Shown: positions 6,728 to 48,156 of the stretch, one piece after another | Layout of the letters: every line of letters starts with the position of its first letter | Position numbering within the stretch: position 1 is the stretch's first letter | Origin: an uncultured Pseudomonadales bacterium | GTDB lineage: Bacteria; Patescibacteriota; Microgenomatia; UBA1400; PJMF01 | NCBI GenBank assembly: GCA_964393205.1 | Contig: CAYMSV010000002.1 | Coordinates: forward strand, 226,767-290,766 | Direction: 5' to 3' | DNA length: 64,000 bases | Position numbers and translations under genes: made by a program | Notes under the pieces: model-generated | The model's database searches: none | Seen by the model: the letters and a program-made list of their open reading frames with translations, nothing else | What the model was told of the DNA's origin: nothing

Positions 6728-7213
6728 ATGGACTTACCAGAAGAACTAAAGACAATTTTACGAGTGAGACAACGCAGTCGTAGCCAACTAACTCTGGTAA
6801 CTGGAGTTTTTGATGTTTTGCATCATCAGCATCGGCAGTTTTTGCAAGCTGCTAAAAAACTTTCTAGTATTTTGTTAGTAGGTCTAGAAACTGATCAGCG
6901 AGTCAGACAATTAAAGGGTCAAGGGCGACCAATTAATTCTGTAGCCAAACGTAAAGAAAATTTACAACAATGGGGCATAGCTGATGTTATTTTTGTCTTA
7001 CCAGCTGATTTTGATCAGGAACAAGTGAGACGAGCTTGGTTAGAGCTTATTAAGCCAGATTATTTAGCCGTATCTAGTCATACTCCCTTTTTGGCTATTA
7101 AAAAGCAGGAGCTTAAAGCTGTAGGCGGTAAAGTTAAAATTGTTCATCAATTTAATCCTCAGGTTTCTAGTAGTAAACTAATTAATAAAGAAACTAAGTT
7201 AAAAAAGGAGTAA
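6728..7213 (+). CDS. Cytidylyltransferase-superfamily nucleotidyltransferase, RfaE/HldE domain II-like (heptose-1-phosphate adenylyltransferase-like)
   Basis: VTGVFDVLHHQH (HxGH-type motif). LKGQGRPINS closely resembles the HldE domain II LKG(P/E)GRPIN. Stand-alone 161-aa protein. Confidence 0.5.
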   Translation: MDLPEELKTILRVRQRSRSQLTLVTGVFDVLHHQHRQFLQAAKKLSSILLVGLETDQRVRQLKGQGRPINSVAKRKENLQQWGIADVIFVLPADFDQEQVRRAWLELIKPDYLAVSSHTPFLAIKKQELKAVGGKVKIVHQFNPQVSSSKLINKETKLKKE

Positions 7214-11852: not shown

Positions 11853-13070
11853 ATGATTGATCTTGTTACTCTTAAAATAATGGCAGGCGACGGTGGTAGG
11901 GGAAAAATTTCTTTTCGGCGTGAAAAATATGTACCTAAAGGTGGTCCTGATGGTGGTGATGGTGGTGATGGTGGGTCTATTATTATTCGAGCTAGCAATG
12001 CTATTTCAACCCTACGCCAGTATGCAGGAGTTAAAGAAATTGCAGCTAAAGATGGTCAAACGGGTCGCAAGCGCAAACAGCATGGTCAGCAAGCTAAGGA
12101 TGTATTAGTTGAGGTTCCAGTAGGCACAACTGTAACTTTATTAGCAGAAAATGAAACTAGTGCCTATCGAAGACAGCGTTATGGTTTTGTTAATGAAGAT
12201 GGTAGTCAAAGATTATTGAGATCGGCAGATTTACAACCAGGCCAGGTGCCTAGTGGCCGTATTGCTCGTCAGCGTTATTTTATTGATTATGATGTGGTTG
12301 ATGGCAATCTCAATTTGGAGCCAGATGCAATTCAAGTTTTAGCAGAACCAGAAGAAATTTGTCGCTTGATGGAATCTGGTCAAGAGTTGGTGCTTTGTCA
12401 GGGAGGTTTTGGCGGACGAGGTAATACTCATTTTAAAAGTAGTAAAAAGACTACTCCTCGCGAAGCAGAACATGGTACTTTTGGTGAACGAAAACTAATT
12501 AAATTGGAATTAAAGTTATTAGCAGACTTAGCTCTTGTCGGTTTTCCTAATGCCGGTAAAAGCACTTTTTTATCAAAGGTAACTGCTGCTAATCCTAAAA
12601 TAGCTAGCTATCCTTTTACCACTTTGGAACCCAATTTAGGAATTATGAAAGTGAAAAAATCAACTCAAGAAATAGTGGTGGCTGATATACCTGGTTTAAT
12701 TAAGGGTGCTAGTCAAGGAAAGGGCTTAGGACATGACTTTTTGCGTCATATTGAAAATTGCCAAGCACTAATGTATGTACTCTTTTTAGAGGAAAACATT
12801 GTGTTTGATACTTCCTTGTCACTTGAAGATAAGAGTCAACTGCTTTGGGATCAATATCAAAGTCTTAATTTAGAGCTTAGCCAACATGATGTTGGTTTGT
12901 TAAAAAAACCAAATATAGTGACACTCAATAAAACGGATTTATATTCTCCAGAAGAAATAGAGATTTTTAAGAAGGCTTTTAAAAAACAAAAAATTGACTT
13001 ATTGGGCTTTAGTGCTATTACTGGTCAGGGTTTAGAAAACATAGTAGAAGCTGTTGAAAAGCTGTTTTAG
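11853..13070 (+). CDS. obg: GTPase Obg/CgtA
   Basis: Obg fold N-terminus (DLVTLKIMAGDGGRGKISFRREKYVPKGGPDGGDGGDGG). G-domain GFPNAGKST, DIPGLI, NKTD. Its 4-bp 3' overlap with the convergent gene is noted. Confidence 0.9.
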   Translation: MIDLVTLKIMAGDGGRGKISFRREKYVPKGGPDGGDGGDGGSIIIRASNAISTLRQYAGVKEIAAKDGQTGRKRKQHGQQAKDVLVEVPVGTTVTLLAENETSAYRRQRYGFVNEDGSQRLLRSADLQPGQVPSGRIARQRYFIDYDVVDGNLNLEPDAIQVLAEPEEICRLMESGQELVLCQGGFGGRGNTHFKSSKKTTPREAEHGTFGERKLIKLELKLLADLALVGFPNAGKSTFLSKVTAANPKIASYPFTTLEPNLGIMKVKKSTQEIVVADIPGLIKGASQGKGLGHDFLRHIENCQALMYVLFLEENIVFDTSLSLEDKSQLLWDQYQSLNLELSQHDVGLLKKPNIVTLNKTDLYSPEEIEIFKKAFKKQKIDLLGFSAITGQGLENIVEAVEKLF

Positions 13071-15136
13071 TTAAGAGCTTCTTCTTCAGAAGTTAATCTA
13101 TTTTCGCGCAATAAATTTGAGGTTTCTTGTTCGTTGAGTAGGTTGGTGAGGCTAGAATCTTCTGTTGCTTCTAATAGTGGTTCTGTTCCTGGATCAATTA
13201 TTTCAGGTTCTAAATTCAAAACTTGAGATTCAGCTTGTGTTTCAGCTTGAGTTCGTAATTGATCAGCTTGTTCACTGACTGCAGCTAATTCTTTTTCAAC
13301 TATAGTGTAATCTTCTAAATCAGTTTCCGGATTGATAAGGGCGAGGGCTTGTTGTAGAGCATTTTCTGCCTCTAAAATTTGTCCACCTTGGATGTAAGCT
13401 TGAGCTAGATTGTAGTAGGCAACAGCTAAATCTGGTTTTCGCTCAATTGCTTGAATAAAGAAGTTGCTTGCTTGTTCCCATTGCTCAAGTCTCATAAGCA
13501 ATAATCCGAGATTCATTCTAACTAAAGGATCATTGGGACTTGTTAAAACAGCTTGAGACAAAGATTCGAAAGCCAACTGGCCAGCATCTTCGGTGACTTC
13601 TAGAAGTTGTAAATATACGTTAGTTAACACCAACCAGTTTTGATAAAATTTTGGTTGTAAAATTGTTGCTGCCCTAGCTTCGGTAATAGCAACATTAATT
13701 AGTTCTAGTACTTGCTCTTGATCTACTGGAGTAATATCTGTTTTGTTTGATAGAGCTATTGCCAACTCTAGAGAGGTAGTTGCATAATTTCTTCGCCAAA
13801 TTGCTGAGCGGTTAGCTAAATTTCGTGCCTGTTCTTGTTTAACAAAAGCAAGGTTAAAATCTTCTTTGCTTACAGCTACTGTAGCTTGATAAGTGGCAAC
13901 ATGAGCTGCATAATTTAAGATAAGTTGATAGGCTAGAAAAATCACTCCCGTCATAAACAAAAGTGAAATTGTAGTGAAAGTATAGCGATTAGCCTTGTTA
14001 TTAGGCTGCAGATTAAAGGGATCAAAAAGATTATTGAAGGAAAATTTTTTAATTTTATAGTTGTCTAAATTAGCTGCTAGATAGAAGCTGGTTACTAAAG
14101 CTAATAGCCCTAACATTAATATATTAAGAGGTAAAATTATTTGCCAGATAATTGCTGTAATAATAAAATATTTAAGCACCTGGGCTCTTTGGGTTTTTTT
14201 AATATTTACTAAAGTTATTGTTCTAGATATGAAAAACAACCAACTCAAAAACGCCAATAAACCCCCACTTACAATTAAAGTTAGAGGAAAAGCAGTGGCG
14301 CTTTCAAAACTAAATTGCCAAAACTCAGAAGTATTAAGCCAAGCCGGCTTAAGTAAATGAAAAGCTTGTCCGTAGCTATTTGGGCCAAAACCAAATAAGG
14401 CAGTACGACTAACTGCTAAACTTTCTCTAGCAATAGCTATGCTGGCTGGAAGTGGCAACAATATTGGACTAGTTTCTTGGCTGGGTAGAGCGGCATATAT
14501 ATTAATGCCCAAACCAACAACTAAGGTAGCAATGATTATTTTTTGCAAAATGTTTGATCTTTGACTTTTAGATAAAATATTGGTCACTATTAGGGCAGAG
14601 AGTAGTTGAATGTTTAATAAAACTCCGCCACTTAGGCTAAAAGAGAGGTTGTTGGGAAATTCAAAAACACTTAGTTGATTGAAAATTTGATTAAAACCAA
14701 AACCAAATAGTTGTAATATTGAACCAAAAACAATAATCAATCCAGCAACATTAAGAACCTGTATTAGTTTTTGACTATGATCTTTTTTAATTAGGGTTGG
14801 CGCGAAAATGATGATAGTTGCGAAGCTTAAGAAAAAACCACCCCAACCAACCAGTTGATCAAAGGGATATTGATGAGTAACTAAGCTGCTTAGTAAGATA
14901 CTTCCAGCAAAGAGAACGAGAGGTAACACTAGGGGATTGGAACTAATTAGCCATTTTTTCTCTTTAAAACTCTGAACGATGTAAGTGACCAGAGTACCTA
15001 AAGCTAAGAAAAATAACAGTATGCCTTTGGTGCTAACAAAAGGGTTATTAATGGAGGGAATCAATAAAACAGGTAATAAAAATGCTAAGATTAGAGCGAA
15101 CAAGGTAAAGGCGTTTGTCTTATTGTTTTTGAACAT
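13067..15136 (-). CDS. Polytopic membrane protein of the O-antigen ligase/polymerase (Wzy_C) family fused to C-terminal TPR repeats
   Basis: About 10 or more predicted TM segments. Periplasmic-loop motif LFGFGPNSYGQAF of the kind seen in WaaL/PglL/Wzy_C proteins. The C-terminal ~250 aa form TPR repeats (AYYNLAQAYIQGGQILEAENALQQAL...). Confidence 0.55.
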   Translation of the reverse strand: MFKNNKTNAFTLFALILAFLLPVLLIPSINNPFVSTKGILLFFLALGTLVTYIVQSFKEKKWLISSNPLVLPLVLFAGSILLSSLVTHQYPFDQLVGWGGFFLSFATIIIFAPTLIKKDHSQKLIQVLNVAGLIIVFGSILQLFGFGFNQIFNQLSVFEFPNNLSFSLSGGVLLNIQLLSALIVTNILSKSQRSNILQKIIIATLVVGLGINIYAALPSQETSPILLPLPASIAIARESLAVSRTALFGFGPNSYGQAFHLLKPAWLNTSEFWQFSFESATAFPLTLIVSGGLLAFLSWLFFISRTITLVNIKKTQRAQVLKYFIITAIIWQIILPLNILMLGLLALVTSFYLAANLDNYKIKKFSFNNLFDPFNLQPNNKANRYTFTTISLLFMTGVIFLAYQLILNYAAHVATYQATVAVSKEDFNLAFVKQEQARNLANRSAIWRRNYATTSLELAIALSNKTDITPVDQEQVLELINVAITEARAATILQPKFYQNWLVLTNVYLQLLEVTEDAGQLAFESLSQAVLTSPNDPLVRMNLGLLLMRLEQWEQASNFFIQAIERKPDLAVAYYNLAQAYIQGGQILEAENALQQALALINPETDLEDYTIVEKELAAVSEQADQLRTQAETQAESQVLNLEPEIIDPGTEPLLEATEDSSLTNLLNEQETSNLLRENRLTSEEEALN

Positions 15137-15202
15137 ATTTTCCAGGCTAGTTAATTGTTTTTTTTACTAGTTTATACTACACTAAATACACAAACAATTT
15201 CT

Positions 15203-15925
15203 ATGTTCAATATAGCGAAAAAAACTATTAAAGTGAAGCGGCAGTTGCTCGAAAAATCAGAGAAAAAAACTCAAAAAGCTGTTACTCTAGTAGAACTATT
15301 AATAGTGGTGGCTATTCTTTTATTGTTAATGGTGTCTCTTTATCGAACCATAGGTCGTGAAATAGATAAATCCAGAGATGCTAATCGCAAAAAAGATTTA
15401 AAAGAGATAAAAATTGCATTTGAAAATTATTATAATGACAATAGCTGTTATCCTCCGGATGATATTTTAGAAAACTGTGGAGGAGAAGAGTTAAGGCCTT
15501 ATTTATCAGAGATCCCCTGCGACCCCTTAGGTGTTCCTTATTTATATTTACCAATATCTGATATTTTTGCTAATAATAATTGTGGTGGCTATAGAGTGCT
15601 AACTCGCATAGGTATTATTAATGATCCTGATATAGAAGCAGTTGGTTGTCCAGAAGGTTGTGGAGGAATACCAGCGGGAATTTCTTCACCAGAAAGCTAT
15701 AATTATGGTATAGCTGAAGGAATAGCGCTTGATCAAACCCCGCCACCAGCAGAAACAATAGATCCTGCTCTATGTACACCTGATGAACATTGTTATTGTT
15801 GTCCTGGTCCAGGAAATCAGTGCAATTCTTGGTGGCCATCCTCAGGAGGAGTTTGTAGTGTTGGTGGGCCATACAGAACACTGAATGATTGTTATAATAG
15901 TACAGAGTGTACTCCGTTTTTTTAA
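15203..15925 (+). CDS. Type IV pilin-like protein (class III signal peptide, Ala at -1), Cys-rich C-terminal domain
   Basis: The ORF is open from 15155, but the ATG at 15203 avoids the divergent promoter region. Leader ...KKTQKA|VTLVELLIVVAILLLL has Glu at +5. The block SRDANRKKDLKEIKIAFENYYNDNSCYP is shared with the next two genes. There are 15 Cys in the C-terminal domain. Confidence 0.6.
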   Translation: MFNIAKKTIKVKRQLLEKSEKKTQKAVTLVELLIVVAILLLLMVSLYRTIGREIDKSRDANRKKDLKEIKIAFENYYNDNSCYPPDDILENCGGEELRPYLSEIPCDPLGVPYLYLPISDIFANNNCGGYRVLTRIGIINDPDIEAVGCPEGCGGIPAGISSPESYNYGIAEGIALDQTPPPAETIDPALCTPDEHCYCCPGPGNQCNSWWPSSGGVCSVGGPYRTLNDCYNSTECTPFF

Positions 15926-15938
15926 TTCTAAAATAATT

Positions 15939-16487
15939 ATGTTGACAAAAAATTTAAATAAACAACAAGCATCTTCAGGATTTACGCTATTAGAATTATT
16001 GGTAGTCATGATCATTTTAGCCTTGTTAGCAGGTATAGGACTAATGTCTTTTGGCACTGTACAACAAAAATCTAGAGATAGTGCTCGCAAGCAAGATTTA
16101 GCCAGTATCTCCAAAGCACTTGAGCTTTATCATAATGATTACGGATCTTATCCACTCTCTAGTTCCATAGATGGGCAAATTGAGGGTTGTGGAATGGATG
16201 CATTAGAAGCATGTGTATGGGGAGAGATTTGGTCAAATAGTTCTGACGACACCCTATACATGAACATGTTACCTAAAGATCCTTTAACAAATTGGAAATA
16301 TTATTATCGTCAAGAGAATAATGGTTATTATCTTTTTGCCCGTTTAGAAAATGAAGAGGATCCATCAATGGCACTCAGTGGTGGTAATCCAGCGTTTTAT
16401 GCAAACACCAATTGTAATGGAGAAAGTGATAGTTGCAATTATGTAATTAAGAGCAGTAATTTAAGTGAGGAGCCTACAATATTTTAA
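15939..16487 (+). CDS. Type IV pilin / pseudopilin (canonical G|FTLLE prepilin motif)
   Basis: The ORF is open from 15885, but that would overlap the previous gene, so the ATG at 15939 is preferred. Leader MLTKNLNKQQASSG|FTLLELLVVMIILALLAGIG. The shared block SRDSARKQDLASISKALELYHNDYGSYP. Confidence 0.7.
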   Translation: MLTKNLNKQQASSGFTLLELLVVMIILALLAGIGLMSFGTVQQKSRDSARKQDLASISKALELYHNDYGSYPLSSSIDGQIEGCGMDALEACVWGEIWSNSSDDTLYMNMLPKDPLTNWKYYYRQENNGYYLFARLENEEDPSMALSGGNPAFYANTNCNGESDSCNYVIKSSNLSEEPTIF

Positions 16488-16510
16488 AATTAAGAGGCAA
16501 GGTTTAAATT

Positions 16511-16984
16511 ATGATAAAAATTAGCAAATTTGATCAAGAAAAAAAAGCTTTTACTCTTATAGAATTATTGATAGTTATCGCTGTTATAGGTGTTTTAATA
16601 GCAATAATTTTACCCAATTTAATTGGAATGCGTGAGCGAGCGAGAGACAGTAAGAGAAAAAATGATTTAGCACAACTAAAAACTGCTCTTAGGATGTATT
16701 TTAATGATTATAATAGTTACCCCCAGTCTTCTATTGATGAAAAAATTTGTTGCAGTGATCCCAGTACTTGTGATCAATGTATTGGCAGTACTTTTGAAGT
16801 AGCTGGTCAGACATATACCAAAGATTTATCTGATAACTACACCTATACGCCTCGAGATGCTGGACAAGGCTTTTTGTTAAGCACCACCTTAGAGAACGCT
16901 TCAGATAAAGACATAGCAGCTAGTGTTACTCGCTGTCAGGTTATTTCACCAATACCCAACTTCTTCTACGTGTGTGAAGATTAA
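16511..16984 (+). CDS. Type IV pilin-like protein (Ala at -1, FTLIE motif)
   Basis: Leader MIKISKFDQEKKA|FTLIELLIVIAVIGVLIAII. The shared block SKRKNDLAQLKTALRMYFNDYNSYP. Conserved Cys pairs (CCSDPSTCDQC). Confidence 0.7.
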   Translation: MIKISKFDQEKKAFTLIELLIVIAVIGVLIAIILPNLIGMRERARDSKRKNDLAQLKTALRMYFNDYNSYPQSSIDEKICCSDPSTCDQCIGSTFEVAGQTYTKDLSDNYTYTPRDAGQGFLLSTTLENASDKDIAASVTRCQVISPIPNFFYVCED

Positions 16985-17025: not shown

Positions 17026-18174
17026 TTAGAGATTTAGACCTTCAAGATTAATGCCTTGGAATTCCAAGCCACCACCTTCACCATCTTCTCCAATATTTAA
17101 GGCTGGTGTTTGACACCACTCTCCAGTTACCTGATTTTTAACAATGGCAATTTGATATTGATATTTATTGCCTGCAGTCGTTGAATCATCAGTATATTCG
17201 CGTAAAGACGAGGAGACATTGGTGTCTAAATCAGCAAATCCCGTGTCATTAACATTACGTTGAATAATGAATTTTTCTACGCCTGTTAGTTCTGTATCCC
17301 ACAAAATCAGTAATTCTGTATTCTCGGCATTTCTTTTTAACAAACAACTTGTCGGACGTTCTGGACCAAGATTAGCTGTAGCAAAACTTCCAGCGGTAGA
17401 CCAATTGCCTACGCCACCTTGATTATCAGAAAATCTAATTCTCCAATAATAAGTAGTGCCGTTAAAGGATAGGGCATTACCACCATAAGTTATGTTGGGA
17501 GATCTAGCACCAATAGCTGTATTGGTCATGGTTTGCAAGCCGCTATCCCACATGCTGGTGCCATCAAAATTTATTGATGTGTTGACTTGAACTTGATAAT
17601 AAGTGCCATAATCTCCTGTATTTGGATCTTGAAAAATTGCGCTAAAATAAGGACTAGTAGTTTCAATTTCGGTCGGGTTGGTTAATCCATTTGTCAATAA
17701 AGCTGTTGGAGTTGTGGGTGGAACGTTCATGCTAAATGAAGCAATGCTTGACCAAGCGCCTTCTGTATCTTCTCTGTCATAAAACCTAATCCGCCAATAA
17801 TAAGTACTACCATCTAAGGACAGGGTATTTCCAGCATAAGTTATATCTGGAGATCTAGCACCGATATTTGTATTGGTCATTGCGACTTTACCACTATCCC
17901 ACATACTGCCAGAAAGATCCGCTGTTTCAAAAACTTGTAATTGATAATGCATTCCATAATCATTTATATCTGGATCTTGAAAAATTGCGCTAAATTCTGG
18001 TGAAGTATCGGTAATGCCAGTAGGATTTGTCTGACCTTCACACAGAGGGGCGGTTGGAGCTGTTGGCGGCGTGCCATAAGAAGCATGAGCCGAGCTGGCC
18101 ATAGTTAAACAGGCTAAAGTTATTACAACTAAATAAAAAATTTTTAAGGTTTTTTTGTTTTTTTGTTTGATCAT
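17026..18174 (-). CDS. Secreted protein with two tandem ~115-aa FN3-like repeats
   Basis: Signal peptide (ITLACLTMASSAHA). Two paralogous modules, each ending ...GSTYYWRIRFYD / GTTYYWRIRFSD with shared SAIFQDP..DYG.YYQ.QV...SMWDSG...MTNT.IGARSP.ITY.GN.LS. Confidence 0.5.
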   Translation of the reverse strand: MIKQKNKKTLKIFYLVVITLACLTMASSAHASYGTPPTAPTAPLCEGQTNPTGITDTSPEFSAIFQDPDINDYGMHYQLQVFETADLSGSMWDSGKVAMTNTNIGARSPDITYAGNTLSLDGSTYYWRIRFYDREDTEGAWSSIASFSMNVPPTTPTALLTNGLTNPTEIETTSPYFSAIFQDPNTGDYGTYYQVQVNTSINFDGTSMWDSGLQTMTNTAIGARSPNITYGGNALSFNGTTYYWRIRFSDNQGGVGNWSTAGSFATANLGPERPTSCLLKRNAENTELLILWDTELTGVEKFIIQRNVNDTGFADLDTNVSSSLREYTDDSTTAGNKYQYQIAIVKNQVTGEWCQTPALNIGEDGEGGGLEFQGINLEGLNL

Positions 18175-18175
18175 T

Positions 18176-18844
18176 CTATCTTTTTATAAATTTTTGTTTT
18201 ATTTCTTTTACCTTATCAACTACTTTTTTATTTTTGCTGAGGATAATCCCACTTATTATTAGACCTACAAGAACGACAACTACAATTAGATATGTCATTA
18301 ATTGTTTAGTTCCAATATTGCTGAGCCAATTAGTTTGAGTAGCAAATAGTTTATTGTTTTCATCTTCTGCTTCAATTTCCTCAAGTCCATCTCCTAAAGA
18401 TATTGTGCTTAAAGTCACTTCTTCTTCACCTTCTTCTGATAGGCTAGAAAAATTCTCACTTTTGTCTAATTTGGCCTGAATATCATAGAAACCATCTTCT
18501 AGATTTAAAACGCTAAAGAGAACAAACCAGTTTCCATATTGATCAACGGTTGTTTCTAATTGTCTTTCTCCAAAAATGATAGTAATTTTAGCTCCTGGTT
18601 GGGCCTGACCGGCTATTTTAACCGCATCGCCTTCGGAAACACGCACTCTATCTGATTGGTTTTTATCTACAACCTCATTATTAATGGCAACATAATCTAG
18701 TACTGGTGTCGATTTTTGATTATTTTGACTAACGGACAGAGTGTTGGCCTCTAATTTATTTGGGTAGGAGAAAATAAGTCCAAGTGCAATAAGAGTGGCG
18801 ATGTTTATGAAGAGCTTTGTTTTGTTTGGATGGAATTTAGACAT
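18176..18844 (-). CDS. Hypothetical cell-surface protein, N-terminal signal plus C-terminal TM anchor with K-rich tail
   Basis: N-terminal hydrophobic segment. An acidic stretch (SEEGEEEV...EIEAEDENN). C-terminal TM LMTYLIVVVVLVGLIISGIIL, then KNKKVVDKVKEIKQKFIKR. Lies 1 nt upstream of the FN3-repeat gene on the minus strand. Confidence 0.45.
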   Translation of the reverse strand: MSKFHPNKTKLFINIATLIALGLIFSYPNKLEANTLSVSQNNQKSTPVLDYVAINNEVVDKNQSDRVRVSEGDAVKIAGQAQPGAKITIIFGERQLETTVDQYGNWFVLFSVLNLEDGFYDIQAKLDKSENFSSLSEEGEEEVTLSTISLGDGLEEIEAEDENNKLFATQTNWLSNIGTKQLMTYLIVVVVLVGLIISGIILSKNKKVVDKVKEIKQKFIKR

Positions 18845-18954
18845 TTTTAAAATTTAAATTAATACTATAATAACAGTGTATTGTAAATTTTTCATTTTGA
18901 AAACATGTAATTAGCATATGGCGTTTTTTTTGTAATATTTATATCTAATTTTAT

Positions 18955-21900
18955 CTAGTTGACAATCCACCAGTTAAATTGAACATCCTTATTTAGAGCA
19001 AAATCAAAACCAGCAATAAATTCTGCTTCATTTTCAATAGTAAATGTGCTGTCTAGTAATTTGTTTTTAATATAAATAACTTGATTGTTGGTAGATGTAA
19101 GAGGTGTGATGTAAATCATGCTGTTTTCAGTAAGACGAGAAGTTTTAACTTTCACCTCAGTTTGACCTGCAAGAATGACTGCTTGTCCAGCACTGTTATT
19201 GTTGATATTTGCAGAAGCACTGGCATCAGCAGAAGCACTGGCATTGGCAGGCATCTGATCAATTTTTAGACCACCACGCAAGGTCAGATCTCCGCTGGCA
19301 GACATTGTTGCTATTGGTTCTCCTTTTTCATCTATAAACTCAAAATTATTTTGTCTAATCACTTCTTCGCCCATTTCGTTAGCGACAGCTTGAGCAAGCT
19401 GTATGCGAATATTTTCATCAGGGTTTTCGGCTCTAATGAGATTGGTGAGTAGAGTATCTTTGACTTTTAGCTCTTCAGCAACTTCTAAAGTACCAGCCAC
19501 TTTAAGATCACCACCAATGGTAATTAGACCACTTTCGTCTAGAACTAATAAGTCAGCCATTAAAGATAAGCGGCCTCTACCAGCTGGCTGAATGGATAAA
19601 TCATAATTTTCATTATTTTGGAAAGCTATATAGCCATCTCCCATAGTTAAACCCTCACCGACCAATAGGGTCTGCTTAACTGCCAGAGCTTCTTCAATTA
19701 AAGCACTACCATTAACTTCAAAATAACCATCAATATAAGCATTGTGTGCTGTGATAGTATCACTTATGAAGTTGTTTTCATCATTGTTTAAGTCAGTGTC
19801 ATTATTAGTGTTGTTTAGATCAATGTTGTTATCTTGAGCCACTTGTTCTAGGTATTCTTCAGTAGTAGTGTCATTATTCATCAATGAGGCAAGTAGAGTA
19901 GAGTCTGCTAGTTGCTTGGCAACCGCCGTTTCTAGTCTTTCCTGTAGGCCGTTGATGATGTTGGCATCAACACTATTGGTATAGAGATTGTCGGTAGTTA
20001 TGGACTGGGCATGAAGTTCTCCAGAAACAGAGGCAGTATTCATTCGAGCACTATTAATTTCTGCTTCTTCGGCTGTTAATTGATTTAATTGGCTAGAGCC
20101 TTCAACTGCAAGATTGCCAGCTAGTTGTGCATTACCTTGATTATCGATACTGGCTACATTTTCACCTAAATTATTTTCAATCAATAATTCAGCTAAAATA
20201 GTGGGTTGTTTTTCTGCAACACTTAAGTTGTTATTTGATGTAATTAGCTCATCATTATTGAGGGCTAGTTGAACAACGTCTTTGATATATTGATCGAGAG
20301 TCTGGCCACCAATTTCTATTTGCTCTGTCACAATTTTTTGAGCGTTGAGAAGACTGGTGTTAATGGCAGTTGCAATTGAGTTATTTAATTGAGTAATTCT
20401 TTGATTTGTTTTTTCAACGAAATCAATATACTTGAGATTTAATTCTTGTATCGCTTTTGTTAACAAAGCTGTGAGGTGGACATAGTTAACACTAATTAAT
20501 TTTCCCTCTAGATAGGTGGCAAACATTGGATTAATTTGTTCTATTTCTTCTGCAATAAAACCCAAATCTTTTCTACCATCTTCTCTCCAGATATATTCAC
20601 GAGGGGTGAGCTGCATCAGTGTGTCCAGTCCATCTCCTAGATCTTTGATATCTTCTTTTAAGTTTTGGGTAGACGCACATGGTCTAATAAATTGATATCC
20701 AGTATAAGTAGTACTTGCGCTATAACACAAAGTAGCTCCTCCGCCAGTAGTGTAGTTGTAATACAAGGCATTGTCGGCCATCACATTTGTTGAAGAATGT
20801 ACGCCGGTTAGAGGGGCAGTTTTACCAATTCCCAGGTTGCCATCTTTATCTAGTCTCATTTTTTCAGTTGGTGAGCCTCCGCTAGTGGTAGTGGTCCAAA
20901 ATAATAAATTACCTTCATTTGTGTTGGTGGTTTGTTTTCTAGCTGTTATATAAGCTAGTTCACCACCAGTGGCAGAAGAATCAGTAAATCTGATTTGTCC
21001 AATATCACTAGTTGTTGAAGTAGTTCTTGCTCCGATTAGGTGCAGAATGGCATCTTGTGCGCTGGTTGCGCTAGTTCTAATATAGAGCTCTGGTGTAGCG
21101 CTGGATACAACGTCTAGGGTGCCTGAGGTGCTGGTGTCGCCAATAGCTACGCTACCATCTGAAAGGATATGTAATGCATCACTGCCGCCAACTGAAAATC
21201 CAAGAGAGTCACTAGCGGGATTATACATACCAGTGTCACTATCCGTGCTAAAACTATAAGTAGGGGCCCCAGCACTACCGCTTGCACCAAGCAATTGAGC
21301 AAAATTAATTAAGCTACCACTATTTAGACTTACTTGATCACTGGCAGCAGCAATAGTAATGTCTCCAGAAGTATTAGAAATTACAGAACTTGTACCACCA
21401 ACGATTAAACCACCCCCTCCACCTCCACTCATAGGAAATTCAACTGTTCCATCATCTTTTAAGGTCATAACGACAGCATCGGCAGTTTCAGTCCAGGAAG
21501 CAGTTGATTTTAATACAATATCCAATTGTGTTCCTGGTCCAGAGCCACTAGAGCTATAGGAAAACACATTAAAATCAGCTACAGCAGGGAATAGTCCTGA
21601 AGTTGCACCTTTTCTAACTAAACGAAGTAGTGTTTCTGTAGTAGTACTGTTAGCATTAGCACCTATCAATCTTGCCGCAGGTGTATTGCCAATTAATTGA
21701 CTTGCATGGGGAGTTCCAATCTGCAATAGTGCCTCTGGTGCAGTAGTACCAATTCCCAGATTGCCACCGATTACTGCCAATCTAGCGGTGCCAGGAGTGT
21801 GAGAACCGATAGCGGCACTACCTGCAGTAGTCAATGAAACTCCAGAAGAAGCTGGATCTAAAAAATAAGCATTGTTGCTATAGTCCATGACTTTTTCAAC

Positions 21901-24900
21901 AATAGCTGAACCGTCAACCACGAGTTTTTCACCAGGATTAGTGACACCAATGCCAACATTTCCATCTGCTCTTATTCTCATTTTTTCGGTTGGCGCTGCA
22001 TTATCGGTAGAGGTTAAAAAAGCTAGTGCTCCTTTGTAAGAAGTGCTGCCAATGTCTGTAATTAAACCTCTAATCTGTGCTACTTCTGTTATTCCTCCCG
22101 TAGTTCTGTTTAGGGCAAAACCGATTTGGGCAATATTGTCAACGTGAGCAGCCGTGGTATTAGTAATTCTTTGAGCAGTAGTAGCTGTGCCAAAAGCTCC
22201 AACCACATCCAATTTAGCTCCTGGAGTTATTGTCCCAATTCCGACACTGCTCCCACCAACAAACAAAGCTTCATCGGTATTGTTAGTAATTCTGAAGGCT
22301 CCGCTAGTAAAATTCCAAGTAGTGTTGAAGGCATCCATAGTTAAGGTTTGATCACTAGTAGTTGGACTAACAATACTGTCCCATCTAACTGCTACGTCAC
22401 CTTGACTTGTCCAAGTTGGAGCACCAGCTCCTTGTGAGGTGAGTAATTGACCAGTATCTCCTGCAACAGTAAATGCATAAGCATCTCCAGTACCATAAGC
22501 AACTGTTCCAGCAGTGGGAGTGGCTGTGGAGTTAGTACCACCTCTTGCAATAGCAAGTAATCCTGTCCAACCTAGTGTCCAAGTTCTATCAGTAGTCAAA
22601 TCTTGAGCAACTCCTGAATTAGTTACCGTTACATTAGTATCTTGAGTAATAGTTAAAGATCGATCAGCTCTAACTGCTTCAGTTGCGACAGTGGCTTGAG
22701 ATCCTAAAATAATGTTATCTCCGTTAATAGTAGTATTGGTTCCCGATCTACCAAGAGTTAATCCTGATTGAGTGGTACCACCAATAGCTAGAGTACCAGC
22801 AGCTCTGGTATCTAGATTGCCTCCACCTTGAACTAAGATATCACCAACCACATCCAATTTAGTTCCTGGGGTAGAGGTGCCGATACCAACACTACCACTT
22901 GCATCAATCACAAATGGAGTAGTGTCAGTAGCACTGTCATCAACTCTAAAGGAAGCGGCATTACCCAAGTTTTTAACATAAAGGGGAATGGCTGTTGATG
23001 AAGCCAGAGTAGAAGCAGTTAGTATAGAAGCATCTCCAGTAGCAGTTGAAGCACTACTTTCTCCAAAAGTAAAAGCACTCTTACCGGCAGTAGTTAGTGC
23101 CCAGTTCCAAACTTGAGCAAGATCTCCACTAGCGATAGTGTTAGCAGCTGTAGCAGCAGTAATACCGGATAGTGGTACATTAGAAGCAGCTCCTGGAGCA
23201 GCCCACACTGGCACACCTCCACTCACAGTTAATACATGACCAGTATCACCAATAGTTCTTTTAGCTAGAGTGTTAGCTGCACTAGCATAAAGCATGTCAC
23301 CAGTTGCATAACTTATTTGATTAGTTCCTCCATAAGCTTCAGTAATGGTACTAGCATTCCAAGTACCACTAGTTAAAGTACCAACTGAAGTTAGAGATGA
23401 ATTAATGACCCCTGATCCAAGAGTAGTAGCATTGAGTACTGAAGTATCATTGATGTAATATTCGTTACCTAAACTTAAATTAGCACTACCAGCGACGTCG
23501 AGCATATGGCCTGGATTGATGTCGCCAATTCCTACTTTTCCTCCACCAACATAGAATGCTTCATTACTATTGTTAGTAATTCTGAAGGCTCCGCTAGTAA
23601 AATTCCAAGTAGTGTTGAAGGCATCCATAGTTAAGGTTTGATCACTAGTAGTTGGACTAACAATACTGTCCCATCTAACTGCTACGTCACCTTGACTTGT
23701 CCAAGTTGGAGCACCAGCTCCTTGTGAGGTGAGTAATTGACCAGTATCTCCTGCAACAGTAAATGCATAAGCATCTCCAGTACCATAAGCAACTGTTCCA
23801 GCAGTGGGAGTGGCTGTGGAGTTAGTACCACCTCTTGCAATAGCAAGTAATCCTGTCCAACCTAGTGTCCAAGTTCTATCAGTAGTCAAATCTTGAGCAA
23901 CTCCTGAATTAGTTACCGTTACATTAGTATCTTGAGTAATAGTTAAAGATCGATCAGCTCTAACTGCTTCAGTTGCGACAGTGGCTTGAGATCCTAAAAT
24001 AATGTTATCTCCGTTAATAGTAGTATTGGTTCCCGATCTACCAAGAGTTAATCCTGATTGAGTGGTACCACCAATAGCTAGAGTACCAGCAGCTCTGGTA
24101 TCTAGATTGCCTCCACCTTGAACTAAGATATCACCAACCACATCCAATTTAGTTCCTGGGGTAGAGGTGCCGATACCAACACTACCACTTGCATCAATCA
24201 CAAATGGAGTAGTGTCAGTAGCACTGTCATCAACTCTAAAGGAAGCGGCATTACCCAAGTTTTTAACATAAAGGGGAATGGCTGTTGATGAAGCCAGAGT
24301 AGAAGCAGTTAGTATAGAAGCATCTCCAGTAGCAGTTGAAGCACTACTTTCTCCAAAAGTAAAAGCACTCTTACCGGCAGTAGTTAGTGCCCAGTTCCAA
24401 ACTTGAGCAAGATCTCCACTAGCGATAGTGTTAGCAGCTGTAGCAGCAGTAATACCGGATAGTGGTACATTAGAAGCAGCTCCTGGAGCAGCCCACACTG
24501 GCACACCTCCACTCACAGTTAATACATGACCAGTATCACCAATAGTTCTTTTAGCTAGAGTGTTAGCTGCACTAGCATAAAGCATGTCACCAGTTGCATA
24601 ACTTATTTGATTAGTTCCTCCATAAGCTTCAGTAATGGTACTAGCATTCCAAGTACCACTAGTTAAAGTACCAACTGAAGTTAGAGATGAATTAATGACC
24701 CCTGATCCAAGAGTAGTAGCATTGAGTACTGAAGTATCATTGATGTAATATTCGTTACCTAAACTTAAATTAGCACTACCAGCGACGTCGAGCATATGGC
24801 CTGGATCTGTATCACCAATACCGACTCGACCGGTACTAGCTTTTATAGTTAATCTGTCGGCATTATTGGTTCTGAGCCAGAAATCGTGATTGGTCATTGA

Positions 24901-26499
24901 TCCAGCAAAAGCGCCACCAGCCGCACCAGTGCCCATAATAAACTCAATATCATTAGTTACATCTCTACCCAAGAAGTAGGCTTTTCCATCGCCCTGAACC
25001 GCTACAGCAGCATTTTGTGATGAGTCAATGACAGCCGATGATTCAGGAGTGATGCCGGTTTGAGCAAATAAGGCTAACCAATTGGTGCCAGCTGCTGAAC
25101 CACTGGTGTGTAGGCTAGCAATTGGATCAGTAGTGCCAATTCCTACATTACCAACTCCATCTGGAGCTAAAACAATATCTCCATCACTGCCACTTTGGGT
25201 TTGAATCATGATCGAATCGGCCTCCAACATTAAGCTACTGCCAGTAGCAGTTTTAATTTCAGGATCATCAGTACCAAGCACCAATTCTCCTTGGTCATTT
25301 AGCATTAACAAAGTGCTATGAGTAGCAATTAAGCTAGGACGAATGCCCTGTACGGTTTCAGAGTTAATGGCGTAGGCTACAGTGCGAATTGGTTGGCGTG
25401 GTGTAAGGGTTTCAGTGCTTGGCGCTGTACCAACCGTAACTTCTAGCCAAACATTGCTATTCTCAGTAAATACACTGTCATCGATAGTTCCACCACAATC
25501 ATGATCGTCGCTACCAGCGCCACTACCAGCTCCAAGATTAGTGCTAAAAATACCGTCTTGATCTGGGGTAATAGCACAAGTATTAGATGACCAGAGCAGA
25601 TTGCCTGAAGTAACATCATCATAGAGCTCAAAAGTGACATCTGTTTCCGCAGCAATGGGAGTGCGGGCGGTATTGGTCAAGCGTCCCTGGAAAGAGAGAA
25701 TCCGATTTGGACTGGTAGGTAGGCTCGGATAAGCAAGTGACAAGACCGCTTGACCGAATTGTTGATAGGCTAGATAGCCTAAGCCGCCAATAAAAAATAA
25801 TAATGCAATAACATTAAGCGCAATAGCTAGTTTATTTGCTCGTTTACGACTTATCTTACTAGCTTGACTAACCTTGCCAAATAAGTTTCGTCTTTTCTTT
25901 GTTCCTTGTTCTTGAGTAAATTTCGCTAAAGTTTCGTCATCACTACTGAGGTTTTGAGTTTGTTGATTTTCGAATTGATCTGTTTGATTTTGAGGGCTAA
26001 TGGCTCTCCTCAAATCAATGTTTTTTGAATCTTTAGTATCAGAGTTATCTTTTTTAGGAGCAAGGGGAATTTCTGACTTGAGTAGGCCCTCTTTTTTTAA
26101 CCAATTTTTAAACTGGCTAACACTGACAATTTTACGCTTAATTGAACTATCTTTTAAACCCTTTTCTCTCTGGTACTTAGCAAAAGCTAAGAGTTTGGGT
26201 TTGCTTCCCAAACCATCTAAATTTTTTTCACCTAGAAAATCTAAAAATTGCTTGATGTCACTTTTGTAATTGCGAATTGTGGTTTTTGAGCGACCGCTCT
26301 TCTTGACTGCCAATAGGTAGTTATTTAGATTTTTTTCGATCTCTTTTGCTACGTTAAGACTATCGTTAGTGCTTTGTTCTTGTTTTTTAGTTTGGCCAAC
26401 TGCTTGATTTTGCAATAACTGCAAGAACTGTTGCTCACCGCTCAGTTTTTTTGCTTCTTTACTGTTTTGCTTGGTAATTTTGTTTATTTTGGCAGGCAT
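18955..26499 (-). CDS. Giant (2514 aa) membrane-anchored surface protein: N-terminal phage-integrase SAM-like (core-binding-like) domain, single TM, tail-fibre-like VGIGT repeats with a 430-aa exact duplication, internal S74-type intramolecular-chaperone-like motif, C-terminal coiled-coil/beta region
   Basis: Residues ~55-140 (YLLAVKKSGRSKTTIRNYKSDIKQFLDFL...SSIKRKIVSVSQFKNWLKKEGLL) resemble the XerD/phage-integrase N-terminal SAM-like domain. TM LAIALNVIALLFFIGGLGYLAY at ~aa 222-246. The extracellular part carries many (V/N)(G/S)IGTxxP motifs. A SxxNLKEDI...L(T/R)P..Y.W.....GFIAEE...I.P segment encoded at ~20560-20690 resembles the Peptidase_S74 autoprocessing module. One continuous ORF. Confidence 0.65.
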   Translation of the reverse strand: MPAKINKITKQNSKEAKKLSGEQQFLQLLQNQAVGQTKKQEQSTNDSLNVAKEIEKNLNNYLLAVKKSGRSKTTIRNYKSDIKQFLDFLGEKNLDGLGSKPKLLAFAKYQREKGLKDSSIKRKIVSVSQFKNWLKKEGLLKSEIPLAPKKDNSDTKDSKNIDLRRAISPQNQTDQFENQQTQNLSSDDETLAKFTQEQGTKKRRNLFGKVSQASKISRKRANKLAIALNVIALLFFIGGLGYLAYQQFGQAVLSLAYPSLPTSPNRILSFQGRLTNTARTPIAAETDVTFELYDDVTSGNLLWSSNTCAITPDQDGIFSTNLGAGSGAGSDDHDCGGTIDDSVFTENSNVWLEVTVGTAPSTETLTPRQPIRTVAYAINSETVQGIRPSLIATHSTLLMLNDQGELVLGTDDPEIKTATGSSLMLEADSIMIQTQSGSDGDIVLAPDGVGNVGIGTTDPIASLHTSGSAAGTNWLALFAQTGITPESSAVIDSSQNAAVAVQGDGKAYFLGRDVTNDIEFIMGTGAAGGAFAGSMTNHDFWLRTNNADRLTIKASTGRVGIGDTDPGHMLDVAGSANLSLGNEYYINDTSVLNATTLGSGVINSSLTSVGTLTSGTWNASTITEAYGGTNQISYATGDMLYASAANTLAKRTIGDTGHVLTVSGGVPVWAAPGAASNVPLSGITAATAANTIASGDLAQVWNWALTTAGKSAFTFGESSASTATGDASILTASTLASSTAIPLYVKNLGNAASFRVDDSATDTTPFVIDASGSVGIGTSTPGTKLDVVGDILVQGGGNLDTRAAGTLAIGGTTQSGLTLGRSGTNTTINGDNIILGSQATVATEAVRADRSLTITQDTNVTVTNSGVAQDLTTDRTWTLGWTGLLAIARGGTNSTATPTAGTVAYGTGDAYAFTVAGDTGQLLTSQGAGAPTWTSQGDVAVRWDSIVSPTTSDQTLTMDAFNTTWNFTSGAFRITNNSNEAFYVGGGKVGIGDINPGHMLDVAGSANLSLGNEYYINDTSVLNATTLGSGVINSSLTSVGTLTSGTWNASTITEAYGGTNQISYATGDMLYASAANTLAKRTIGDTGHVLTVSGGVPVWAAPGAASNVPLSGITAATAANTIASGDLAQVWNWALTTAGKSAFTFGESSASTATGDASILTASTLASSTAIPLYVKNLGNAASFRVDDSATDTTPFVIDASGSVGIGTSTPGTKLDVVGDILVQGGGNLDTRAAGTLAIGGTTQSGLTLGRSGTNTTINGDNIILGSQATVATEAVRADRSLTITQDTNVTVTNSGVAQDLTTDRTWTLGWTGLLAIARGGTNSTATPTAGTVAYGTGDAYAFTVAGDTGQLLTSQGAGAPTWTSQGDVAVRWDSIVSPTTSDQTLTMDAFNTTWNFTSGAFRITNNTDEALFVGGSSVGIGTITPGAKLDVVGAFGTATTAQRITNTTAAHVDNIAQIGFALNRTTGGITEVAQIRGLITDIGSTSYKGALAFLTSTDNAAPTEKMRIRADGNVGIGVTNPGEKLVVDGSAIVEKVMDYSNNAYFLDPASSGVSLTTAGSAAIGSHTPGTARLAVIGGNLGIGTTAPEALLQIGTPHASQLIGNTPAARLIGANANSTTTETLLRLVRKGATSGLFPAVADFNVFSYSSSGSGPGTQLDIVLKSTASWTETADAVVMTLKDDGTVEFPMSGGGGGGLIVGGTSSVISNTSGDITIAAASDQVSLNSGSLINFAQLLGASGSAGAPTYSFSTDSDTGMYNPASDSLGFSVGGSDALHILSDGSVAIGDTSTSGTLDVVSSATPELYIRTSATSAQDAILHLIGARTTSTTSDIGQIRFTDSSATGGELAYITARKQTTNTNEGNLLFWTTTTSGGSPTEKMRLDKDGNLGIGKTAPLTGVHSSTNVMADNALYYNYTTGGGATLCYSASTTYTGYQFIRPCASTQNLKEDIKDLGDGLDTLMQLTPREYIWREDGRKDLGFIAEEIEQINPMFATYLEGKLISVNYVHLTALLTKAIQELNLKYIDFVEKTNQRITQLNNSIATAINTSLLNAQKIVTEQIEIGGQTLDQYIKDVVQLALNNDELITSNNNLSVAEKQPTILAELLIENNLGENVASIDNQGNAQLAGNLAVEGSSQLNQLTAEEAEINSARMNTASVSGELHAQSITTDNLYTNSVDANIINGLQERLETAVAKQLADSTLLASLMNNDTTTEEYLEQVAQDNNIDLNNTNNDTDLNNDENNFISDTITAHNAYIDGYFEVNGSALIEEALAVKQTLLVGEGLTMGDGYIAFQNNENYDLSIQPAGRGRLSLMADLLVLDESGLITIGGDLKVAGTLEVAEELKVKDTLLTNLIRAENPDENIRIQLAQAVANEMGEEVIRQNNFEFIDEKGEPIATMSASGDLTLRGGLKIDQMPANASASADASASANINNNSAGQAVILAGQTEVKVKTSRLTENSMIYITPLTSTNNQVIYIKNKLLDSTFTIENEAEFIAGFDFALNKDVQFNWWIVN
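22278..24806. repeat. Perfect tandem direct duplication, two copies of ~1239 bp identical sequence, period 1290 bp (copy 1 ~22278-23516, copy 2 ~23568-24806), inside the giant CDS
   Basis: Aligned by eye at several sampled positions along the unit, with no mismatches seen where compared. For example tgttagtaattctgaaggctccgctagtaaaattccaagt occurs at 22281 and 23571, and agcgacgtcgagcatatggcctggat at 23491 and 24781. The ~51-bp junctions differ. Each copy encodes 430 aa (VGIGD(T/I)(D/N)PGHMLDVAGSANLSLGNEYY ... SGAFRITNN). Confidence 0.9.
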
Positions 26500-30976: not shown

Positions 30977-31648
30977 TTGATGACAATTAAACATTTATCT
31001 AGGCGTCTTTTTCTACTCATTTTCCGTTTTTTACCATTTTGTTTGATAATTATAGCTCTCAGTCTGGCTTGGCCGGCTCTCGAATCCTTGCGAGCTTCAG
31101 CGGAGAGTTTAGAGTGTTATTGTCCTAGCTGCCCTGAAAACTTGCTACCAGAGTCAGGTTTGCAAAAACTAGGTCGAATCAAGGTTGAAATCGCTGGGGC
31201 AGTAAACAAGCCAGGAATTTATGAACTTGATTTAGGGCAAAGAAGAGCCGATTTATTAAAGTTAGCTGATGGTATAAATGCCGAGGCATCTCTAGTGTTT
31301 ATGGCCAAAACCTTCAATCTCAGCAGCATCTTAAATGATGGGGAAAAAATATACATTCCTTATGCTTGGGAGGAAGAATGGCAATTAGCGTCTCTAACAA
31401 ATCAGGGGGTCTCATTAGAAAAAACTGAAGCGCTAATCGGTCATAGCTCCTCTGAAAGTGCTAATTCTCAATTAATTTCAATTAATACGGCTAGTGCCAA
31501 AGAATTAGAAAATCTACCAGGAATTGGTGAAAAACGAGCCAGTGATATTGTTTCTAACCGCCCCTTTTCCAGTCTAAATGAACTAGTGAGCAAGGGTGCG
31601 GTTACTCAAACCATTTTTGATTCAATTAAAGAATTAATTACTTTGTGA
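30977..31648 (+). CDS. comEA: ComEA-family DNA-binding competence protein (TM anchor, SLBB-like domain, C-terminal tandem HhH)
   Basis: N-terminal TM. Its C-terminus INTASAKELENLPGIGEKRASDIVSNRPFSSLNELVSKGAVTQTIFDSIK is the canonical ComEA helix-hairpin-helix pair. Confidence 0.8.
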   Translation: MMTIKHLSRRLFLLIFRFLPFCLIIIALSLAWPALESLRASAESLECYCPSCPENLLPESGLQKLGRIKVEIAGAVNKPGIYELDLGQRRADLLKLADGINAEASLVFMAKTFNLSSILNDGEKIYIPYAWEEEWQLASLTNQGVSLEKTEALIGHSSSESANSQLISINTASAKELENLPGIGEKRASDIVSNRPFSSLNELVSKGAVTQTIFDSIKELITL

Positions 31649-31822
31649 GGAAAAGTAAGGAGGAAATAATTTAAAAGAATTTTGTGAAAGATTTAGCATA
31701 TTATTATAGGATTTTAGAGCTTTCAATAAAGTGCAAACTGCTTTAGCAAAGATTCTAATTGATTGCTAAAAAGTGACTACTTTTTTAGTTAATAGAGAGT
31801 AAACAAGGGAATAAAGCAACTT

Positions 31823-48039: not shown

Positions 48040-48041
48040 AG

Positions 48042-48113
48042 TGCCTCCACCAAGAATCGAACTTGGATTTAAGGTTTAGGAAACCTTCGTTCTATCCATT
48101 GAACTATGGAGGC
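48042..48113 (-). tRNA. tRNA-Arg (anticodon CCT), 72 nt, no encoded CCA
   Basis: Reverse complement GCCTCCATAGTTCAATGGATAGAACGAAGGTTTCCTAAACCTTAAATCCAAGTTCGATTCTTGGTGGAGGCA. A 7-bp acceptor stem, D arm GTTC/GAAC, anticodon stem AAGGT/ACCTT with loop TTCCTAA, T arm CCAAG/CTTGG with TTCGATT loop. Confidence 0.85.
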
Positions 48114-48156
48114 TGTTTAGCCAATTACGCTTTTTTATAATTTCTTTTTTATTCTA

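Follow-up and report, generated by a model that had tools for sequence, protein, structure and literature searches.

A very divergent WaaL-fold membrane protein with an outward TPR domain is encoded beside type IV pilin genes in Patescibacteria

What does a polytopic membrane protein do when its gene lies head to head with three type IV pilin genes in a bacterium of the candidate phyla radiation? The question is raised by a locus on contig CAYMSV010000002.1 (assembly GCA_964393205.1, an uncultured member of the Patescibacteriota), of which we analyzed a stretch of 64,000 nucleotides (nt; positions 226,767 to 290,766 of the forward strand, called the window here, with a G+C content of about 37%). 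At 13067..15136, on the minus strand, this window encodes a protein of 689 amino acids (aa) that joins a transmembrane (TM) domain to tetratricopeptide repeats (TPR), and we refer to it as TM-TPR. The original prediction, which was made from the letters of the sequence, assigned the protein to the Wzy_C/O-antigen ligase family and read the divergent pair as a candidate pilin O-glycosylation module. In this study, we found that TM-TPR belongs to the WaaL/Wzy_C (GT-C_B) superfamily, within which it is very divergent, and that the relationship in fold is real. The link of TM-TPR to pilins is suggestive, and a role in glycosylation is plausible, with the activity itself unproven.

The open reading frame (ORF), the AF2 model and the Pfam scan all agree on a polytopic protein with a C-terminal TPR array, as had been proposed. 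The model (pLDDT 83.7, pTM 0.83) confidently places 11 TM helices in a membrane domain at aa 1-403 (13928..15136, minus strand) that has its N terminus inside, and the eleventh helix joins this domain to the helical repeats at aa 427-637 (13226..13858, minus strand). Within the repeats, Pfam recognizes TPR_1 (E=1.9e-9), TPR_2 (3.8e-9) and TPR_19 (9e-9) at aa ~490-610, and seven Pfam TPR families in total exceed their gathering scores. Lysine and arginine make up 13 of the 61 residues in the inner loops (21%) and 6 of the 153 in the outer loops (4%), and because these residues are concentrated in the inner loops, we place the N terminus in the cytoplasm and both the large loop between TM7 and TM8 (aa 217-282; 14291..14488, minus strand) and the whole TPR domain outside. 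The model and this positive-inside count together put the TPR domain on the same side of the membrane as the TM7-TM8 loop, which bears out the periplasmic-type loop that the original prediction called for. The motif LFGFGPNSYGQAF that it quoted is present in this loop (aa 247-259; 14360..14398, minus strand).

Past the repeats, aa 638-689 (13070..13225, minus strand) consist of an acidic linker that is disordered (pLDDT stays under 50 at aa 636-661) and of a conserved C-terminal helix that the model places at aa 669-681. The end helix reads 'S-L-T-N-L-L-N-E-Q-E-T-S-N-L-L-R-E' in the window protein and 'S-L-(T/S)-N-L-L-(N/D)-E-...-E-T-...-L-L-R-E' in its relatives, S661 and L663 being invariant among the close ones, and it might fit into the TPR groove of the same protein or serve to bind a partner. 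An assignment of TM-TPR to the PilF/PilW/Tgl type, which comprises small TPR-only outer-membrane lipoproteins, was rejected: TIGR02521 matches just the TPR region, at 31.6 bits where the cut-off is 154, whereas TM-TPR is polytopic and 689 aa long.

Is the membrane domain that of an O-antigen ligase? Sequence profiles gave no direct match. PF04932 (Wzy_C) and PF13425, the Pfam families that had been named in advance as the check, do not match TM-TPR, either as the whole protein at E<=0.1 or as the membrane domain alone (aa 1-426) at E<=10. The Pfam scan of the protein returned TPR families alone and none for the membrane domain, NCBIfam matches fall nearly all on the TPR region, and a precomputed Wzy_C annotation is carried by 0 of 37 close full-length relatives. 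The PglL-specific motifs that flank Wzy_C (PglL_A, PglL_B, Wzy_C_2) were not among the Pfam matches either, although the presence of these models in our copy of the library is unconfirmed. When profiles were compared with PDB sequences, TPR matches swamped the full-length search, and the membrane-domain profile had no match at E<=10; hhalign of the family alignment against single WaaL sequences (E. coli and C. metallidurans) found nothing significant (probability <1%).

Comparison of structures gave a single clear match. In a Foldseek search with the membrane domain alone, WaaL (7tpg_B) was the sole match below 1e-3, at E=5.9e-4, and was followed by FtsW (8p1u_A) at E=0.066; ArnT (5ezm) ranked 48th (E=3.0), and transporters appeared as noise (E>0.1, TM-score <0.2). 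The modeled domain has the WaaL-type three-dimensional fold, and its long outer loop comes shortly before the C-terminal TM helices, as that fold requires. Intermediate sequences lead to the same superfamily. The protein P0177, which the family profile matches at 1e-44, scores 42.8 bits with Pfam Wzy_C against a cut-off of 31.7 bits, and the Wzy_C match stops exactly at the conserved 'SNTYLHILTTTGILG' motif. P0195, a bona fide Wzy_C+TPR protein, aligns without a gap to the TM-TPR family from GxGP through the following TM helix, and LFGFGPNSYGQAF aligns with 'WTGVGVGQFARI' ('TGVGVGQF') of WaaL. Because P0177 matches Wzy_C and P0195 aligns gaplessly, TM-TPR can be placed in the WaaL/Wzy_C (GT-C_B) fold superfamily as a remote member; because the window protein lacks a direct match and just 2 of 56 diverse family members match Wzy_C, the link to Wzy_C is a transitive one. 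The proposed family assignment thus stands at the level of fold and superfamily, through the Foldseek match to WaaL, P0177 and the motif alignment, and fails the Pfam profile test that the original prediction had itself set as grounds for refutation. A word-indexed homologue search with the membrane domain of P0177 returned 7 proteins. P0177 also matched an 'Oligosaccharyltransferase' (9rmk_A) weakly (E=0.0024), and we made no use of this match, which disappears when the membrane domain is searched alone.

If the fold has been kept, has a functional site been kept with it? In the 56 diverse members, K37, K/R263 and G249 are conserved in 100% of sequences, N268 and G251 in 98% each, W273 in 96%, and D/E238 and K/R241 in 86% each. 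Most of the conserved residues (D/E238, K/R241, G249-x-G251-P252, K/R263-P264, N268 and W273) lie in the TM7-TM8 loop, which corresponds to the active-site loop of WaaL in the alignment to WaaL and P0195, and 31 of the 34 positions with identity of at least 75% are in outer loops or in the outer halves of TM helices. In active GT-C families, conserved residues are likewise on the outer face (PMC10920833). The clustering of conserved positions on the outer face therefore resembles a ligand-binding or active site retained at the WaaL position, not a decayed one. Loop 1 of TM-TPR has no conserved Asp or Glu, and K37 is the only invariant polar residue nearby. N268 commonly begins an N-x-S/T sequon (NTS, NGT or NAT; aa 268-270, nt ~14327-14335) in the outward loop, which may be coincidence.

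The genes that face TM-TPR are, as judged from their sequences, genuine type IV pilin or pseudopilin-like genes. They lie in tandem on the plus strand, divergent from the TM-TPR gene as originally described, and encode pilin 1 (15203..15925, ~240 aa, Cys-rich and prepilin-like), pilin 2 (15939..16487, 182 aa) and pilin 3 (16511..16984, 157 aa), which score 27.0, 28.4 and 29.7 bits with N_methyl against 21.2; TIGR02532 of NCBIfam is above its cut-off for all three, and their similarity to T2SSG/GspG in Pfam and NCBIfam is weak. All three show the N-terminal prepilin cleavage/methylation motif and, after it, a hydrophobic helix with Glu at +5. In pilin 2 the prepilin site is the canonical G|FTLLE; position -1 is occupied by Ala, not Gly, in pilins 1 and 3. 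Orthologues of pilin 1 contain 12-16 Cys. Pilin 3, the shortest, is the most PilA/GspG-like of the three, with matches to Myxococcus-type PilA (E=7.6e-15) and GspG (2e-14) that are both below the cut-offs. The ORF of pilin 2 is open from 15885, and its start is most likely ATG 15939, since the overlap with pilin 1 then vanishes and the length agrees with that of a 182-aa orthologue at another locus (L010). The orthologues of pilin 2 share a C-terminal tail past the last Cys ('C-N-Y-x-x-x-S-(S/T)-N-...' in 28 sequences), which lies at 16430-16487 in the window; its conserved Ser/Thr pair is, speculatively, reminiscent of the C-terminal Ser acceptor in TfpO-modified pilins.

The start codons of TM-TPR and pilin 1 had been placed less than 70 bp apart, and we measured 66 bp (15137..15202) with ATG 15203 as the start of pilin 1, or 18 bp with TTG 15155. 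A promoter scan of the 66-bp intergenic region found 18 sites, no excess over the 15.2 +/- 4.0 found in shuffled sequence, and a regulatory region shared by the divergent pair is for this reason only conjectural.

Does the pairing of TM-TPR with pilins extend beyond this genome? We surveyed species-representative genomes with a 9-sequence alignment of closer relatives as the query and obtained 78 loci, about 40 of which have a true membrane-domain match. Down to 28% identity, the gene order begins with a giant protein and three pilins and continues through the divergent TM-TPR gene to Obg, an M23/LysM peptidase and Rho, and this block recurs in nearly all loci with at least 29% identity. The adjacency of pilins and TM-TPR is conserved across some 35 loci. 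The informative cases are three rearranged loci, L040, L045 and L047. In L040, the pilin triplet has been relocated to the opposite side of the TM-TPR gene. L045 and L047 each have a pil1-type gene immediately upstream of the TM-TPR gene and co-directional with it, 40 bp away in L047; this gene is Cys-rich and carries the 'K-x-DL-...-AFE-x-YYND-...-C-YP' motif as in pilin 1, which is the type of pilin that remains beside TM-TPR in rearranged loci. The pilin link outlasts these three rearrangements.

An exhaustive profile search places 4,948 representative clusters (clustered at 50% identity) in the TM-TPR family at E<=1e-3. The architecture of about 700 aa is common to most of the top 150 matches. 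The named members and the sampled loci all come from Patescibacteria, and the family appears to be restricted to the candidate phyla radiation; the closest public relatives are metagenome-assembled genomes labeled Pacebacteria, Paceibacterota, Microgenomates or Patescibacteria. The sole name that the members carry at the source is 'TPR repeat protein'. What is new here is a large family, unannotated past its TPR repeats, that joins a WaaL fold to a TPR domain and is without the catalytic His.

We tentatively propose, as a possibility about which we are more doubtful than confident, that TM-TPR is a glycan-transfer or maturation factor that serves surface proteins at the outer face by a noncanonical chemistry. 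Under this proposal, TM-TPR would act on the outer side of the cytoplasmic membrane in the maturation of surface proteins. A polyprenyl-phosphate-linked glycan would dock in the conserved outer loop at K37, D/E238, GxGP, K/R263, N268 and W273 and would pass to a protein acceptor held by the TPR domain. The best candidates for the acceptor would be the Cys-rich pilin 1, pilins 2 and 3 or the neighboring giant fiber, and the protein would be a functional analogue of the O-oligosaccharyltransferases TfpO/PglL/PglS, TfpW and WsfB. The binding of a lipid-linked glycan, the catalysis and the identity of the acceptor are inferences. A stronger version of the proposal, in which TM-TPR represents a new GT-C_B enzyme class found so far in the candidate phyla radiation only, with K37, K/R263, N268 and D/E238 replacing Arg/Arg/His, and with the TPR domain guiding glycosylation of the Cys-rich minor pilin and/or the tailspike-like fiber, is distinctly unlikely.

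Several observations weigh against the proposal, beginning with the residues. In WaaL, Arg-191 and Arg-265 bind the pyrophosphate of undecaprenyl pyrophosphate (Und-PP), and His-313 activates the acceptor (PMC10920833). When E. coli WaaL is aligned with 7TPG, the three residues fall in 'NGTRGA', 'SVGVRLKIW' and 'EHAHNDIVEAASTTGIPGL', respectively; NmPglL conserves all three (R224, R298 and H349), and H324 of PglS is essential, H324A serving as the inactive control. Because hhalign against single WaaL sequences was not significant, we mapped these positions through bridging Wzy_C+TPR sequences, by sequence alignment rather than by structural superposition. At the position equivalent to His-313, the main residues among 183 family sequences are S (69), T (37), F (17), R (16) and A (14), and H is found in 4; the window protein appears to have Thr-281 there and to have lost the adjacent Asn too. 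The canonical 'AHN' motif is kept in a few members (P0150 and P0164). No conserved Lys or Arg is found between aa 61 and 240 across the 56 diverse members, so there is no counterpart of Arg-191, and the helix segment of Arg-265 aligns to a gap and appears not to be alignable. As far as alignments can tell, the Arg/Arg/His triad of WaaL, PglL and PglS is absent from the TM-TPR family. Without the canonical residues, catalysis of any kind would have to rely on a rewired active site.

The genomic context also has points on this side. In the collinear clade, much of the adjacency to pilins could reflect general conservation of gene order, because Obg, M23 and Rho are conserved too. Distant members have other neighbors: a MurJ-family flippase gene 13 bp downstream of P0038/P0039 (L006-L008), ftsZ directly downstream of the family gene in L048, two giant DUF2341/Laminin_G_3 proteins immediately upstream in L042 and L089 (the latter the locus of an 'AHN'-keeping member), or else a NUDIX gene, all of them without pilin genes. 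For this reason, linkage to pilins, especially to the pil1 type, is real in one large clade and not family-wide. The pilin/TM-TPR cluster contains no genes for sugar synthesis, an initiating transferase or a flippase. The two sugar-related genes noted elsewhere in the window bear their earlier descriptions out: the gene at 6728-7213, described as HldE-domain-II-like, proves RfaE-domain-II-like, its match (E=3.4e-23) falling short of the equivalog cut-off, and that at 53851-54726, described as TagA-like, belongs to the WecG/TagA superfamily above the cut-off. WecG/TagA-family enzymes act on undecaprenyl-PP-linked acceptors, and the presence of such a transferase in the window makes it probable that the organism produces undecaprenyl-PP-linked glycans. 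Pilin glycosylation in bacteria of the candidate phyla radiation has so far been predicted and not demonstrated: a study of Saccharibacteria pili predicted it, left it unexplored and named no transferase (PMC11623550). The reading of TM-TPR as a pilin O-oligosaccharyltransferase is only partly supported: the adjacency, the outward TPR domain and the precedents of TfpW and WsfB speak for it, and the absence of the triad, of neighboring glycan genes and of pilin linkage in distant members speaks against it. Conservation of synteny, which had been suggested as a check, divides in the same way: almost every relative with 29% identity or more has adjacent pilins, also through the three rearrangements, and distant members are without pilins.

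How do other explanations fare? One is that TM-TPR is a general envelope-glycan ligase or polymerase that transfers a lipid-linked cell-wall glycopolymer to a nonprotein acceptor (peptidoglycan, a glycolipid or the growing polymer), with its adjacency to pilins lineage specific and functionless. The ranking of folds, WaaL best and the SEDS polymerase FtsW second, agrees with it, and so do the neighbors of the most distant relatives (a MurJ-family gene 13 bp downstream, or ftsZ directly downstream), the housekeeping block of Obg, M23/LysM peptidoglycan hydrolase and Rho within which the TM-TPR gene is conserved, the abundance of cell-wall genes in the window (Mur ligases, MreB, SpoIID, VanW and the TagA-like gene) and the report of CAZy GT121 from Gram-positive bacteria too. 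Such an enzyme would miss Arg/Arg/His equally, however, and no polymer-synthesis genes are adjacent; an outward TPR domain is more typical of the recognition of a protein or partner, and the pilin link has survived three independent rearrangements. We regard this explanation as rather unlikely. A transporter or permease with TPR repeats, unrelated to WaaL, would account for a polytopic protein whose membrane domain has no Pfam family, but the structure search effectively refutes it, as transporters score as noise and WaaL alone is on top, and the conserved residues are on the outer face and not along a transmembrane path. Its chance of being correct is negligible, and the original prediction, which had named a better match to an unrelated transporter family as grounds for its rejection, survives on this point.

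The remaining explanation is that TM-TPR is a noncatalytic derivative of WaaL, a pseudoenzyme that serves as a membrane platform or chaperone for assembly of the pilus and/or the giant fiber, its TPR domain binding subunits and its membrane domain binding at most a carrier lipid. All three catalytic and phosphate-binding residues of WaaL are replaced, the His position varies (S/T/F/R/A/H), the cluster has no sugar genes, and pilin genes and tailspike-like giants are its consistent neighbors. Yet the conservation is centered on the loop that forms the active site of WaaL, with K37, K/R263 and G249 invariant, which is unlike the diffuse surface of a scaffold, and the 'AHN' kept in P0150 and P0164 suggests that catalysis was retained ancestrally. 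A pseudoenzyme is, in our judgment, also rather unlikely. Of these explanations, an outer-face glycan-transfer factor is the likeliest, and we keep it as our tentative reading.

Either outcome would be informative. Bacteria of the candidate phyla radiation rely on type IV pili and giant surface proteins for attachment to their hosts, and a WaaL-fold family tied genomically to pilin genes offers a concrete candidate for a glycosylation factor. Activity of TM-TPR would mean that the WaaL fold can do without the Arg/Arg/His triad; inactivity would mean that a widespread pseudoenzyme has been recruited to the biogenesis of surface appendages. Should the stronger version of the proposal be true, TM-TPR would be the first protein-glycosylation enzyme to be identified in Patescibacteria and a mechanistically distinct O-oligosaccharyltransferase. 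Our search for literature joining the candidate phyla radiation with O-antigen ligases found no paper.

The giant fiber named among the candidate acceptors belongs to a three-gene flank at 17026..26499 on the minus strand, convergent with the pilins, that recurs beside the pilin/TM-TPR cluster across loci. Its genes encode a secreted protein with two Ig_Rha78A_N domains (17026-18174), one of 222 aa that is anchored in the membrane (18176-18844) and one of 2,514 aa (18955-26499). The last has a Phage_int_SAM_1 domain at aa 64-138 (E=5.5e-9, above threshold), predicted on the cytoplasmic side of a single TM helix at aa ~222-245, and then a giant extracellular region with a Peptidase_S74 intramolecular-chaperone domain at aa 1945-1991. 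Its C terminus resembles K1-lyase_C, the end of a phage tailspike, at a weak E=4e-5 that is below threshold, and the protein looks like a membrane-anchored, tailspike-like fiber. The giant proteins that flank the cluster at different loci share the motif '...F-x-V-G-[FI]-D-...-[DN]-V-x-F-N-W-W-[ILM]-[VI]-[NQ]' at the extreme C terminus (18955-19050 in the window). Among the last 30 residues, the motif is found in 23 ORFs from 22 of 47 loci, versus 1 of 11,910 internal windows of 30 residues, and it extends to L040, L042, L045 and L047, all of them rearranged, with a 278-aa ORF of L045 among its carriers. It could be a shared fiber terminus or a recognition element. A role of '...FNWWIVN' as a sorting signal that the TPR domain reads was considered and downgraded, because the region weakly matches K1-lyase_C and the end of a tailspike-like fiber is simpler; a word-indexed homologue search with the C terminus of the giant returned 3 proteins. 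The giant gene is also internally duplicated in tandem at 22199-23788, the period being 1,290 nt (about 430 aa). A 300-nt reference segment is 91% identical between copies by the repeat finder, the protein copies are near-identical over about 430 aa by eye, and the G+C content of the region is 0.41-0.43 versus about 0.37 for the window.

Other features of the window lie farther away. A competence-type DNA-uptake set is encoded on the plus strand at 30977-34191, about 14 kb from the pilin genes, and consists of a ComEA-like protein (HHH_3/SLBB, 30977-31648), a ComEC 'Competence' domain protein (31823-33229) and a separate metallo-beta-lactamase ORF (33226-34191). No genes for the pilus motor proteins PilB, PilC and PilT are in the window. 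A second giant protein, of 2,375 aa (37106-44233, plus strand), has Kelch/beta-propeller repeats and fn3 domains and is followed by a 135-aa ORF and an ABC/FtsX (MacB-like) pair (44236-48039). The RNA features are ordinary: tRNA-Arg(CCU), tRNA-Pro(CGG) and an L10 leader upstream of rplJ (48041-48233 and 56351-56480, both minus strand).

Which known system does TM-TPR most resemble? WaaL of Cupriavidus metallidurans (7TPG/7TPJ; PF04932, GT121, GT-C_B) has a long outer loop that precedes the last TM helices, as TM-TPR does, and the two align in register at G-x-G and the following helix start 'x-N-x-x-L-...-T-x-G-x-x-G', with the conserved residues of TM-TPR on the outer face as in WaaL. Unlike WaaL, with which it shares only 11-13% identity, TM-TPR appears not to conserve Arg-191, Arg-265 and His-313, has 11 TM helices rather than 12, with the C terminus outside, and adds an extracytoplasmic TPR domain. 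The host lineage differs too, Patescibacteria being generally regarded as lacking lipopolysaccharide. The SEDS proteins FtsW and RodA belong to the same GT-C_B clan, and FtsW is the second, much weaker fold match; they differ from TM-TPR in having 10 TM helices, an essential Asp at the equivalent of the WaaL His and no TPR domain.

The remaining comparisons are with protein glycosyltransferases. PglL, TfpO (PilO) and PglS, known from Proteobacteria, belong to the WaaL-like superfamily, and their genes typically adjoin that of their pilin substrate; most PglL homologues are encoded beside pilin genes, which upholds the premise of the original prediction that pilin O-oligosaccharyltransferases are commonly so placed. 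In contrast to these genes, that of TM-TPR diverges from the pilins instead of lying downstream, with L045 and L047 as exceptions. TfpW, the group IV pilin arabinosyl-/oligosaccharyltransferase of Pseudomonas aeruginosa, has the same layout as TM-TPR, with a cytoplasmic N terminus, 11 TM segments, a periplasmic C-terminal TPR domain and a position beside pilA, but ArnT (GT-C_A) is the template for its membrane domain, in which a DDX motif of loop 1 is essential, and TM-TPR has neither the fold nor the motif. WsfB, the O-oligosaccharyltransferase of the S-layer in the monoderm Paenibacillus alvei, likewise ends in a TPR motif and pairs it with Wzy_C; WsfB lies inside an S-layer glycan cluster and has a regular Wzy_C score, whereas TM-TPR has no adjacent glycan genes and its catalytic residues are not conserved. 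Collectively, these comparisons suggest that TM-TPR works at most like TfpW, WsfB or PglL, departing from WaaL, PglL and PglS in its residues and from TfpW in its fold.

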